39,945 bases of DNA, taken from a virus. The stretch lies in IMG/VR virus record IMGVR_UViG_3300025015_000006; one strand, written 5' to 3'. The notes beneath the pieces are model-generated. The model searched no databases, was not told the DNA's origin, and saw nothing but the letters and a program-made list of their open reading frames with translations. Shown here piece by piece: positions 1-39,945 of this stretch (position 1 is its first letter; each line of letters begins with the position of its first letter). The translations under genes were made by a program, and so were the position numbers.

Positions 1-127
1 AATTCCATTGTTCTTAAAGTTCCAAAAAAATTCAACTGTATTGAATGTAATAAACCATCTCAAACAATTTCTCGGTCAGGTGGAAAATACTGTTCCCCCA
101 GATGTAACCATCGTTTCCAAGCAAGAG
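1..127. repeat. 127-bp exact terminal overlap, identical to 39819..39945; signature of a circular assembly
   Basis: Base-by-base comparison of the two window ends shows all 127 nt identical, and the repeat runs exactly to both contig ends. Coding frames continue across the junction. Confidence 0.95.
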
Positions 128-388
128 TGTGGAGAAGAAGACATGGTATACAACCTAGAGGTTGAAGATGTTCACGAATACTTCGCTAATGGAGCTCTTG
201 TTTCAAACTGTCACGCAACTAACTACTTTTTAATTGGTCTGAAGAGATATTCTGAAAAGAGGGGTTCGGTGGTTAAAAATTCTTTTTCTTCCCGCCTTCA
301 TGGTGAGCCGTCATTTGAGATAGTTGATGACACCATGCCAGGAAAGCCAATATTTGAAAAAGAACCCAAAGACTGGAGATATGTATGA
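1..388 (+). CDS. terL: Terminase large subunit, C-terminal continuation. The intein C-terminus ends at 208; the C-extein is 209..388
   Basis: Same frame as 37732 once the 127-bp overlap is collapsed (position p corresponds to 39818+p). Reads ...MVYNLEVEDVHEYFANGALVSN|CHATNYFLIGL..., stop at 386-388. Confidence 0.85.
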   Translation, partial: IPLFLKFQKNSTVLNVINHLKQFLGQVENTVPPDVTIVSKQECGEEDMVYNLEVEDVHEYFANGALVSNCHATNYFLIGLKRYSEKRGSVVKNSFSSRLHGEPSFEIVDDTMPGKPIFEKEPKDWRYV

Positions 389-37731: not shown

Positions 37732-39945
37732 ATGGATAATAAGGAATTCACCAAAGAAGAGTTAACAAAAATAATCTACGAGGCTCAATCAGTTAATCCT
37801 TTGGTCTGGATTTACGCTAACAAAATGAAGAGTGAGAGGGCAATTCCCATCTCTTTCAAGAGGCATAAATACCTTATAGAGCCTTTTTGTGATATGTCTC
37901 CCCGCCAGGTTTACCAGAAATCAGCCCAGATGGGTCTCTCAATCATGATGATTCTAAAAACCTTTTGGATGGCGAAGTTTAGAAACATGAATATTATCTA
38001 CACGCTCCCAACAGTAGAGGACGTTAGGAAGTTTGTACCTTCCAAAGTCAATCCAATCGTAAACAATAATTCCCAGATTTACAAATGGGTTAAGGACAAA
38101 GACTCCATAGAAACCAAGAAAGTCGGGGACTCGTTTATCTTCTACAAGGGAACTTTCACCAGCAAAGAGGCGATTATGTTGTCTTCCGATTTAAACGTTT
38201 ATGATGAGGTAGACCGAAGCGACTTGTCAACGATTGACATTTACTCCTCAAGGGTCAAATTTTCTCCCTATCACGGCGAGTGGTTCCTTTCCAATCCTTC
38301 AGCCCCAACGGCTGGAGTAGGAGCAAAATTCACCCTCTCAACCCAGAACCATTGGTTTATAAAACCCTCCTGTGGACATTACCAGTACATGGATTGGGAT
38401 AATAATGTGGACAAAGCCAATGGCCGCTACATCTGTTTCAGGTGCGGAAAGAAAATAGAGAATTACGACAGGACTCATGGCGAATGGGTCGCTAAATACC
38501 CCAGTCGGGAGATGAAAGGGTACTGGATTAACCAGATGATGGCCGAGTGGATAGATGTTAAAAATCTGATTTTGGAGGAGGAGGATAAAAACAAGGCCTA
38601 CTTCTATAATTTTGTTTTAGGCAAACCTTACATGGGCAGTGACACCATCATTGATGCCTCCCTTATCTTAAAAAACGTGGTTGAAACTCCAAACTCCCAA
38701 ACCAACTGTATTATGGGGGTTGACCAAGGGTTGAAAAAACATTATGTTTTGGGAAATAAGGAGGGAATTTTCCAAGTAGGGAGCACTAAGGAGTGGGACG
38801 ATATTGAGAACCTGAGAAATAAATTTGATGCGGTACTTATCATGGATGCCCTTCCCGACTTGACCGTTCCCCGCCAGTTGAGGGAAAAATATCCTCACAA
38901 AGTCCACCTCTGTTACTACCACAAAGACAAGGACAGGGCGGTAGATACCAAGTGGGGCGAGAACAAGGACTGGGGTTATGTCTGGGCTGACCGAAACCGA
39001 ACTTTACAGACGGTTATAGATTGGCTAGCTTCGGGAAAGATTAAATTCCAGATGAAACCTTATGATTTAGAAGAATTTGTAAAACACTGGTCAACTATGT
39101 ATAAATTGGTGGAGGAGGATTTCCTGGGAGTGCCCAAATTTATCTGGGAGTCAACGGGAAAAGACCATTTTTGTTTAGTTGGTGAAACTTTAATTGAAAC
39201 TTCAAAGGGAGAAATACTTATCAAGAAAGTAAAAGTTGGGGATATGGTTTTAACAAGAAAAGGATATAGGAAAGTTCTTCGTTCTTGGATGACAAGGAAG
39301 AACGCAAAGGTAATGAAAGTTAATTTCTCAAATAGAAAATCTCTTATTGGAACTCCCGACCATAAAATCTGGATTAAAGATAAAGGTTTCGTTGACTTAC
39401 ATTCTACGAACTATGGTGATATAATAGAAACATGCAAGAAGCAATCATATTCAAAGGTATTACTTATAGGAGGTATCCTGATTCTCCTAATCGTTCTGAT
39501 AGGGTGTATTTTAATTCAAATGGTACTGAACATTATAAAGGTAGGAAAAGACTTCATCAGGAAATTTGGATGTCTATTCATGGAAAATTTCCAAAAGGTT
39601 GTGCAATACACCATAAAGACGGTAACTCGCTTAACAATGATATTTCCAATCTTGAATGTATCTCAAGAAGTCTCCATATGTCCCAACATGCAAAAGAAAG
39701 TTTCAAAAATCCACAACGGAGAAAACAAAATAAAGAACATCTTAAAAAAATCAATAAATTATCACATATATGGAGAAGAACACCAGAAGGAAAAGCGTGG
39801 CATTCTAAACATGCTTTTAATTCCATTGTTCTTAAAGTTCCAAAAAAATTCAACTGTATTGAATGTAATAAACCATCTCAAACAATTTCTCGGTCAGGTG
39901 GAAAATACTGTTCCCCCAGATGTAACCATCGTTTCCAAGCAAGAG
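37732..39945 (+). CDS. terL: Terminase large subunit, intein-containing. It runs off the window end and continues at 128..388; the full CDS is 825 codons including stop, about 539 aa after splicing
   Basis: ATG at 37732, with the frame open to the window end by hand translation. Walker A-like QKSAQMGLS, Walker B LNVYDEVD, a Zn ribbon CGHY..CFRCG, and a C-terminal nuclease-type motif GKDHF interrupted by CLVGETLI. It sits directly after terS and before the portal gene. Confidence 0.85.
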   Translation, partial: MDNKEFTKEELTKIIYEAQSVNPLVWIYANKMKSERAIPISFKRHKYLIEPFCDMSPRQVYQKSAQMGLSIMMILKTFWMAKFRNMNIIYTLPTVEDVRKFVPSKVNPIVNNNSQIYKWVKDKDSIETKKVGDSFIFYKGTFTSKEAIMLSSDLNVYDEVDRSDLSTIDIYSSRVKFSPYHGEWFLSNPSAPTAGVGAKFTLSTQNHWFIKPSCGHYQYMDWDNNVDKANGRYICFRCGKKIENYDRTHGEWVAKYPSREMKGYWINQMMAEWIDVKNLILEEEDKNKAYFYNFVLGKPYMGSDTIIDASLILKNVVETPNSQTNCIMGVDQGLKKHYVLGNKEGIFQVGSTKEWDDIENLRNKFDAVLIMDALPDLTVPRQLREKYPHKVHLCYYHKDKDRAVDTKWGENKDWGYVWADRNRTLQTVIDWLASGKIKFQMKPYDLEEFVKHWSTMYKLVEEDFLGVPKFIWESTGKDHFCLVGETLIETSKGEILIKKVKVGDMVLTRKGYRKVLRSWMTRKNAKVMKVNFSNRKSLIGTPDHKIWIKDKGFVDLHSTNYGDIIETCKKQSYSKVLLIGGILILLIVLIGCILIQMVLNIIKVGKDFIRKFGCLFMENFQKVVQYTIKTVTRLTMIFPILNVSQEVSICPNMQKKVSKIHNGENKIKNILKKSINYHIYGEEHQKEKRGILNMLLIPLFLKFQKNSTVLNVINHLKQFLGQVENTVPPDVTIVSKQE
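39432..39945 (+). CDS. HNH homing endonuclease, 183 aa, in a different frame from TerL and the intein; continues to the stop at 163-165 after wrap-around
   Basis: ATG at 39432, preceded by an in-frame TGA at 39417. Hand translation gives RLHQEIWMSIHGKFPKGCAIHHKDGNSLNNDISNLECISRSLHMSQH, then a C-terminal KYCSPRCNHRFQARVWRRR. No stops in between. Confidence 0.8.
   Translation, partial: MQEAIIFKGITYRRYPDSPNRSDRVYFNSNGTEHYKGRKRLHQEIWMSIHGKFPKGCAIHHKDGNSLNNDISNLECISRSLHMSQHAKESFKNPQRRKQNKEHLKKINKLSHIWRRTPEGKAWHSKHAFNSIVLKVPKKFNCIECNKPSQTISRSGGKYCSPRCNHRFQAR
39819..39945. repeat. Second copy of the 127-bp terminal overlap
   Basis: Identical to 1..127. Implies a unit genome of 39,818 bp. Confidence 0.95.

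Follow-up and report, generated by a model that had tools for sequence, protein, structure and literature searches.

The gene for the large terminase subunit (TerL) of the virus filed in IMG/VR as IMGVR_UViG_3300025015_000006, whose sequence of 39,945 nucleotides (nt) is referred to here as the window, very probably contains a mobile class-1 intein in a motif of the nuclease domain, with the homing endonuclease of that intein encoded by a separate gene in the -1 frame of the intein DNA. The TerL frame runs without a stop through the whole insert, an HNH endonuclease is encoded in the neighbouring frame between the two halves of the splicing (Hint) domain, and the same layout recurs among relatives. 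The architecture, its conservation, the pattern of selection on the two frames and the presence or absence of the element among close relatives were all observed directly.

The TerL intein and the nested HNH frame

Bases 1-127 of the window are identical to bases 39819-39945, and because of this 127-bp terminal direct repeat we read the record as a circular assembly of 39,818 bp in which the repeat is assembly overlap; both the intein and the HNH open reading frame (ORF) cross the circular junction. Followed over that junction from the ATG at 37732, the TerL frame (frame 0) stayed open for 824 codons, up to a stop at 386-388, and this single frame joins both exteins; the exact precursor of 824 amino acids (aa) is also public (P0032). 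The intein corresponds to residues 481-765 of the precursor, that is, 285 codons from 39172 through the junction to 208, starting with CLVGETL, containing GTPDH (in GTPDHKIW) and ending with VYNLEVEDVHEYFANGALVSN (ALVSN), after which the extein resumes with CHATNYF. Several hallmarks of class 1 were found in the window, namely Cys1 (39172-39174), TPDH in block B, a terminal Asn and a Cys at position +1. In frame 0, the Pfam family Intein_splicing (PF14890) was matched at 7e-9, the match being divided between the N- and C-terminal ends of the insert, and Hint_2 was matched at 26.5 bits, under its cut-off of 28.4. With the insert removed, the TerL extein amounts to 539 aa and matches GpA_ATPase (PF05876, 3e-13) and PHROG 675, terminase large subunit (1e-83).

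The HNH ORF, which begins at the ATG at 39432 and ends at the TGA at 163-165, encodes 183 aa in the -1 frame relative to TerL and matches HNH_3 (PF13392) at 6.9e-15, with 54.9 bits against a cut-off of 24.8, as well as several PHROG families of HNH endonucleases. HNH_3 was its sole significant Pfam match; MrpR_C_cat reached a non-significant E = 0.18, and Endonuclease_7 was not among the Pfam matches at E <= 1. The protein carries the motif HHKDGNSLNNDISNL together with a CxxC...CxxxC module, and within the family described below the residues H60, H61, D63, N68, N69, N73 and H86 are invariant, the pattern HHxDxNxxNNxxxNL being present in 92 of 93 clusters and the cysteine module in 91. An AlphaFold2 model of the enzyme reached a mean pLDDT (predicted local distance difference test) of 94.7. 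Among solved structures, the HNH profile matched I-HmuI alone (PDB 1U3E; E = 8e-4 over the HNH core), and it was also the top match of the model in a Foldseek search of the PDB, albeit a weak one (E = 0.014, TM about 0.2); we base the kinship with I-HmuI on the sequence profile and not on the Foldseek match.

The earlier note on this DNA, made from the letters alone, had placed the HNH stop some ten codons before block F. This was wrong: the stop (gtT GAa) falls in block F itself, at V-E of VYNLEVED, and the tail of the HNH thus shares bases with the beginning of Hint-C. Many homologous HNH proteins end with RVQSDG or IQPRG directly before their stop, a sequence that arises when block F is translated in the -1 frame, and across the family the HNH stop lies 10-23 codons ahead of the intein C-terminus. 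The overlap of two functional parts is thus short, involving the C-terminal helix and tail of the HNH protein and the strand before block F. The other coordinates proposed in the note (the circular junction, the TerL ATG at 37732, the 285-codon intein, the TGA at 39417, the ATG at 39432 and the length of 183 aa) all proved accurate. Its description of a motif-free frame-0 linker was likewise borne out by a count of 0 stops and by the absence of any Pfam match there, and profile hidden Markov models placed Intein_splicing and Hint_2 in frame 0 and HNH_3 in frame 2. A local profile search found no second intein or HNH in the window, and no long ORF was present on the antisense strand. A group I or group II intron with an endonuclease ORF was considered as well and rejected, the Rfam scan having returned no family at gathering score anywhere in the window. 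The features are collected in Table 1.

Table 1. Coordinates of the terminase, intein and endonuclease features in the window
Feature	Position	Strand	Basis or remark
TerL N-extein, gpA-type, 480 codons, ends STGKDHF	37732..39171	+	Open frame; PF05876, PHROG 675; aligns to intein-less P0033/L009 up to 39175
Hint-N: Cys1 in CLVGETL, block B TPDH, final YGDII strand	39172..39426	+	Pfam; local Hint-N profile, 146 bits from 39172
Candidate promoter CTTACA-18 nt-TGaTATAAT	39396..39425	+	Consensus scan; lead only
HNH-frame TGA, five codons ahead of the HNH ATG	39417..39419	+	Shuts the frame to read-in from upstream
HNH_3 ORF, part 1, -1 frame relative to TerL	39432..39945	+	Continues at window position 128
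HNH ORF, part 2, with stop TGA 163-165	1..165	+	Bases 1-127 repeat 39819-39945; last ~6 codons and stop overlap block F
Frame-0 linker, about 160 codons, fully overprinted by the HNH ORF	39427..39906	+	Without Pfam match; no conserved sequence
Hint-C: VTIVSKQECGEED strand, blocks F/G VYNLEVEDVHEYFANGALVSN, Asn 206-208	89..208	+	Local Hint-C profile, 87-90 bits; C-terminal end of PF14890 match; bases 89-127 = 39907-39945
TerL C-extein, 59 codons and stop, starts with +1 Cys (CHATNYF)	209..388	+	DNA alignment with L009 resumes at 220

Relatives and selection on the two frames

At the window locus, frame 0 contained 0 stops over the HNH ORF where about 4.8 were expected; codon-order shuffles gave P(0) = 0.0009, and synonymous resampling with the codon usage of the genome gave P = 0.0013. 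In segments of the same length from the other long ORFs of the genome, the corresponding off-frame was open in 0.3%, and the third frame over the HNH ORF held 25 stops. Taken alone, this locus is suggestive of a TerL frame kept open beyond chance; the comparative sequence data, in our assessment, are decisive. TerL proteins 36-44% identical to that of the window (L001, L004, L007 and L008) showed intein Pfam matches and no in-frame HNH, and their DNA revealed the same layout in the same register, with the intein of L008 sitting three residues further downstream. Scanning with the HNH alignment added at least 160 loci, whose stop-free segments were searched with local HNH, Hint-N and Hint-C profiles; all counts from this survey are among the matches listed and represent lower bounds on the size of the family. 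One stop-free frame with Hint-N, an HNH ORF in the -1 frame and Hint-C was present in at least 106 loci, which group into 93 clusters when the HNH identity threshold is 90% and into 49 when it is 50%. This figure is itself a lower bound, the Hint-C profile, built from five sequences, having missed the divergent Hint-C of L069, L073 and L078, which was confirmed by eye. The proposal that the HNH is a nested, overprinted ORF and not an in-frame domain is upheld by this identical out-of-frame layout.

Departures from the common layout were few. In L069 and L073, the HNH lies at +1 relative to the intein, whose frame is again fully open, which means that the arrangement arose or shifted on more than one occasion. 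L075 (2640-3600) is split, with 16 stops between a Hint-N and a Hint-C that share one frame; at least eight loci hold free-standing relatives, and L128 and L155 are canonical in-frame inteins with distant HNH domains. Two public proteins, P0043 (L172:3900-5000) and P0018 (L173:1-1400), were considered as natural Hint-HNH and HNH-Hint fusions and rejected, as their contigs show single 1-nt indels. These indels lie in the middle of the element and break the HNH and intein frames at once, shifting both together, while the relation of intein frame to HNH frame (+1) is kept on both sides; the two copies stem from faulty assembly or else are dead terL genes. From them, gene callers produced chimeric Hint-linker-HNH or HNH-linker-Hint "proteins". 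Stops in the TerL frame of homologues, which the earlier note had regarded as a sign of a split or degenerate intein, occurred only in the split locus L075 and in the single-indel copies L172 and L173.

The element was also found in isolated phages. TJE1, phiCDHM19 and Highwayman each possess a single uninterrupted terL coding sequence (728-799 aa) that conceals the HNH in frame 2, and their records give "terminase large subunit" only, the HNH being unannotated. Because viable isolated phages bear the element in a single uninterrupted terL, the precursor must yield a working terminase. In the literature searched, no paper tying inteins to TJE1 or to Clostridioides difficile phages was found. 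The endonuclease is invisible in annotations because gene callers skip genes fully nested in a gene on the same strand; the HNH protein of the window had no exact match in a collection of 5.8 billion proteins (best match, 79%) and had therefore never been called as a gene. As for the precursor, P0032 is labelled "Bacteriophage tail assembly protein" in a metagenome-assembled genome of Candidatus Woesebacteria (NCBI), a mis-named terminase, and its contig is probably a phage contig binned with a bacterium of the candidate phyla radiation.

Stops in the intein frame over the HNH ORF numbered 0 in each of the 93 cluster representatives against 4.35 expected per ORF, and the free-standing relatives had 7-16 stops in the corresponding frame. 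A Met followed by Ile, Met, Thr, Asn or Lys occurred in 0 of 146 cases in nested HNHs versus 5 of 18 in free-standing ones, because this pair forces a TGA in the intein frame. Over 1,038 pairs, the HNH averaged 40% identity, Hint 37% and the frame-0 linker 14%. When the 11 closer pairs were compared by codon position (1/2/3), the proportion of sites that differ came to 0.26/0.21/0.53 for the HNH, 0.26/0.20/0.53 for Hint read in the intein frame and 0.31/0.25/0.58 for the extein, and the codon periodicity in the overlap tracked the HNH frame. These comparisons indicate that the HNH frame in the overlap is under ordinary purifying selection and that the intein frame is only kept open. The suggested constraint on both frames was thus borne out, but asymmetrically, the linker being selected only against stops. 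The splicing residues were retained in the relatives, with Cys1 in 91 of 91 clusters, TxxH in 88 and the terminal Asn in all 91; the +1 extein residue was Cys in 79 of these clusters and Ser in 12.

Mobility, expression and rival explanations

Close relatives of the window differ in the presence of the insert. P0033 is an intein-less 539-aa homologue with 91% identity by BLASTP and 94% in the multiple alignment, and L009-L011, whose TerL is 91-94% identical in protein and ~83% in DNA, have an exactly empty intein site. The DNA of L009 aligns to the window up to 39175 and resumes at 220, reading KDHF/VHGLNYF (slashes mark the insertion point) within the empty-site sequence ...GGCAAAGACCATTTTGTTCATGGACTTAAC...; no HNH match was found within about 2-4 kb on either side of terL in L009-L011, the span for L009 itself being about 3-4 kb. 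Among intein-less homologues, the residue after DHF or DHW was Val in 35, Cys in 35 and Ala in 26. The 73 N-exteins matched Terminase_3 (30), Terminase_6N (29), Terminase_6C (16), Terminase_3C (15), GpA_ATPase (4) and the T7 type (1), and the element is hosted in at least four TerL families. The insertion always adjoins an acidic motif that is conserved close to the C-terminus of TerL (DH/C; NH/C...CIDALRYA; HDDx/C...CDA), and the site presumably corresponds to the nuclease active site. Some pairs share 55-64% HNH identity yet only 15-33% extein identity, and there are signs in the sequences that intein and HNH have moved between exteins (extein switching).

In a distance tree of the HNH proteins, the free-standing, split and other-register forms were scattered among the nested ones, implying about 10 changes of state. 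Among the six free-standing copies checked, four (L093, L066, L080 and L089) follow directly on the 3' side of a gene that matches terminases; the copy in L074 is found just upstream of a portal gene, and L086 has no terminase neighbour. Acinetobacter phage BP10 (L175; OP585104, 9764-10405) has a free-standing HNH just 5' of terS and an intein-less TerL of 469 aa, and Acinetobacter phage Highwayman (L177; OZ038341, 10078-12360) carries a related HNH nested in a TerL intein. These two phages could serve as a usable experimental pair.

The start of the nested HNH is ATG in 90 of 92 clusters and lies a median of 88 codons past Cys1. Upstream of it, Shine-Dalgarno-like 4-mers occurred in 47% of clusters versus 17% of the background, coinciding with the Gly-Asp ("GD") codons of Hint, and an exact TATAAT stood 4-12 nt before the ATG in 10 of 92 clusters versus 0.4% of the background. 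In the window, the sequence CTTACA-18-TGaTATAAT, with an extended -10 and 10 of 12 consensus positions, ends 6 nt before the HNH ATG within the YGDII codons of Hint-N. This promoter-like site could be an internal promoter yielding a near-leaderless HNH mRNA. The signals of the nested gene may be built into the GD codons of Hint, either as Shine-Dalgarno-like GGAGAT/GGTGAT or as an extended -10, TGATATAAT.

From these observations, the following course of events can be proposed. Ribosomes translating terL would pass through the HNH gene in frame 0 and produce the 824-aa precursor, in which the Hint halves are linked by about 160 meaningless residues; the Hint halves would then fold together and excise the 285-residue insert, leaving a functional TerL of 539 aa. 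Separate initiation at ATG 39432 would provide the 183-aa I-HmuI-like enzyme, which in a mixed infection would cut an intein-less terL near DHF/xHA, and repair from the intein-bearing copy would spread intein and HNH jointly (homing). Selection would keep the Hint blocks functional in frame 0 and the HNH in frame -1, barring the overlap only from frame-0 stops. The likely origin is a free-standing HNH gene from the 3' end of terL that invaded the loop of a mini-intein, and the nested form is the family's common, stable state.

Several observations weigh against this interpretation. The Intein_splicing match passes only marginally, with 36.1 bits against a cut-off of 35.8. The penultimate residue of the window intein, where block G has His, is Ser; across 91 clusters this residue was His in 62, Ser in 20, the window among them, and another residue in 9. 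Inteins without a penultimate His can splice, and the Ser weakens the assignment without barring membership. The closest empty allele has Val and not Cys at +1 (DHF/VHGL), and its invasion would therefore need co-conversion of flanking extein codons. An AlphaFold2 model of the 824-aa precursor was confident for the extein and reached a pLDDT of about 30-40 over the whole intein, because the alignment was shallow (five aligned sequences only), and neither Hint folding nor linker disorder draws structural support from it. The 93 clusters that are free of stops share ancestry, so their combined stop statistics do not represent independent trials. No clear Shine-Dalgarno sequence precedes the HNH start in the window, GGTGAT at 12 nt upstream being all that is present, and in the promoter scan the regional count was not above that of shuffles, which makes the single site statistically unremarkable. 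Finally, we infer splicing and homing, as well as separate initiation of the HNH and its cleavage specificity, from conservation and from isolated carriers being viable.

Other explanations account less well for the same locus. An in-frame HNH intein displaced by two compensating 1-nt indels, near 39420 and at 130-160, might be suspected in a circular contig derived from a metagenome, particularly as single-indel copies exist in public assemblies (L172/P0043 and L173/P0018). The register of the window, however, is shared by at least 106 loci from many samples and by independently sequenced isolated phages, none of the 93 clusters holds any of the four to five stops that an unselected off-frame would accumulate, and an in-frame stop stands 5 codons ahead of the HNH ATG. 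The indel copies break both frames at one point, so they are not in-frame fusions, and no close relative has an in-frame HNH, those of L128 and L155 being distant. An assembly or sequencing artefact is thereby excluded. Production of the HNH by programmed -1 frameshifting, as an N-extein-HintN-HNH fusion, would agree with an HNH frame exactly -1 of TerL and with the frequency of such frameshifting in phages. Against it, the TGA at 39417 closes the HNH frame, the 12 nt from there to the ATG at 39432 contain no slippery heptamer (X XXY YYZ), the start is a conserved ATG in 90 of 92 clusters with the upstream stop at a median distance of 4 codons, and the HNH of L069 and L073 is in the +1 register. 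Folding around the HNH start showed no unusual RNA structure and no sign of a regulatory hairpin (z = -0.33). The conserved ATG just after an in-frame stop and the lack of a slippery heptamer therefore favour independent initiation, and we consider frameshifting highly improbable.

It is also unlikely that the HNH is a decaying relic, that is, an endonuclease no longer expressed or active in the long junk loop of a fixed mini-intein. Such decay after fixation is what the homing-cycle model predicts, the window copy lacks an obvious ribosome-binding site and broken copies exist; yet the ORF is intact with all invariant catalytic and zinc-ribbon residues, its codon-position pattern and 40% aa conservation point to purifying selection, stops expected in its own frame are absent from all 93 clusters, and presence or absence among close relatives indicates recent mobility. 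Only a little more probability, still low, attaches to the idea that the HNH has a role other than homing, or in addition to it, and serves packaging or cos cleavage, having been placed in terL for co-expression. Free-standing relatives do lie directly beside terL or terS, and terminase-adjacent HNH proteins can be needed for packaging (PMC11855218). Relatives whose TerL is 91-94% identical, however, have neither the intein nor an HNH match in the region searched around terL, so the HNH is dispensable; its distribution over unrelated TerL families is sporadic and shows signs of switching between exteins; its sole solved relative, I-HmuI, is an intron-encoded homing enzyme; and its Pfam family is HNH_3, as opposed to that of the short packaging HNH proteins of PF01844 type. 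A mobile intein with a homing endonuclease in the -1 frame thus remains the explanation that we prefer.

Further observations concern terminases of the survey and their surroundings. P0069, an 861-aa TerL homologue, contains a different intein in the ATPase domain (VIY/CVDEET), and LAGLIDADG_3 was matched in 2 of the 73 N-exteins; some terminases therefore hold two inteins of different kinds. At L065 (2300-3900), a free-standing HNH directly follows a complete TerL (DALRYACMF... to its stop), and a second TerL C-terminal end (CCDAMRYACMW... to its stop) follows the HNH in a +1 frame that is stop-free over the HNH; no Hint motifs were found at this locus, which may be an intronless-homing cassette that brings a replacement 3' end, or else what is left after an intein was lost. 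Two of the related phages, L004 (351-2206) and L008 (468-2205), encode Cpn60 and Cpn10 (GroEL/GroES-like) just upstream of their genes for the small and the large terminase subunit.

Implications and comparison with known systems

Beyond the window, we give slightly less than an even chance to the broader proposal that overprinted HNH inteins are the dominant, long-lived state of a large terminase-intein family, spanning at least four TerL families and many hosts, and not a rare transitional accident. If this proposal is correct, the out-of-frame layout would itself be favoured, uncoupling the dosage and timing of the endonuclease from those of TerL; the HNH would act as a free multi-turnover protein, and protein splicing would dispose of the nonsense translation. 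The free-standing, split, two nested and distant in-frame forms would then represent a living series of endonuclease acquisition by inteins. With such related states at hand, including those in culturable C. difficile and Acinetobacter phages, the model in which a free-standing endonuclease invades a mini-intein becomes approachable by experiment. The family also offers a clean natural case of one-sided selection on overlapping genes, in which one frame is selected for protein and the other only against stops, and the amino-acid cost of the overlap to the enzyme can be measured. In practice, the findings flag terL sequences that naive translation or typing would misread, and inteins tolerating arbitrary inserts of about 160 residues may be of use.

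Each part of this arrangement has a counterpart among known systems. Canonical bifunctional HNH inteins combine a Hint domain with an HNH at the same structural position as in the window, and they differ in that the intein polypeptide includes the endonuclease as one of its domains, whereas in the window the endonuclease is a separate -1-frame ORF between the TGA at 39417 and the TGA at 163. I-HmuI is the HNH homing endonuclease of phage SPO1 and resides in a group I intron, unlike the intein-borne HNH of the window, and it lacks the C-terminal CxxC...CxxxC module of the latter. Split inteins flanking free-standing endonuclease genes of the GIY-YIG and Vsr-like types, with HNH only predicted, were described by Dassa et al. 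(NAR 2009, PMC2677866). In those fractured genes, as in the window, the endonuclease gene occupies the canonical Int-N/Int-C insertion point, mostly in phages and in one case in a terminase, and its 3' end overlaps Int-C, by 6-69 bp in their loci and by about 20 nt of block F here. The intein frame of the window, in contrast, is unbroken and would supply a single precursor for splicing in cis; the split arrangement was found here only in the relative L075.

Hidden, out-of-frame HNH genes have been reported as well. Arsenault et al. (Genes 2025, PMC11855218) described the ShiLan-type HNH in a phage DNA methylase whose own frame stays open. Like the HNH of the window, it is out of frame within a stop-free host frame, unannotated and homing-like. 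The ShiLan insertion, however, lacks a splicing domain and is presumably retained as a loop of the mature protein, whereas the HNH of the window is enclosed by a complete Hint domain whose catalytic residues are invariant, and the junk translation is predicted to be removed by protein splicing.

The closest precedent is the work of Gosselin, Arsenault and Gogarten (bioRxiv 10.1101/2025.01.02.630785). According to the passages of that preprint dealing with such architectures, actinophage inteins with antisense LAGLIDADG endonucleases have been known since 1998, and antisense VSR-like and same-strand, "frame 3" endonuclease VII-like genes also occur, some of them in TerL; the authors propose that free-standing endonuclease genes invade inteins and call these architectures rare. 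As described there, the same-strand cases resemble the window in being contiguous inteins whose splicing blocks enclose an endonuclease ORF read from the same strand in a different frame, in having an in-frame linker without a recognisable fold and in a patchy distribution that suggests ongoing transfer; their "frame 3 relative to intein" appears to be the register of the window. Their same-strand endonuclease, however, is endonuclease VII-like (IPR004211), whereas that of the window is HNH_3/I-HmuI-like, and the HNH cases in those passages are in frame only. Their set comprises a few dozen PhagesDB phages, compared with at least 93 clusters here from environmental phages and non-actinobacterial isolates, in at least four TerL families. 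This suggests that inteins with overprinted endonucleases are common in environmental and some isolated phages, in contrast to their rarity in the actinophage survey. Stop-avoidance statistics, amino acid constraints and codon-position tests are given here, and the same passages contain none. The arrangement, which was unfamiliar to the earlier note, was therefore not new, since inteins with an endonuclease in another frame or strand, though not HNH_3, were reported in 2025. The window shares the architecture of those inteins and presumably their logic. What differs here is the endonuclease family, together with a membership that is far larger and more varied, and quantitative evidence for the maintenance of the overlap is now added.

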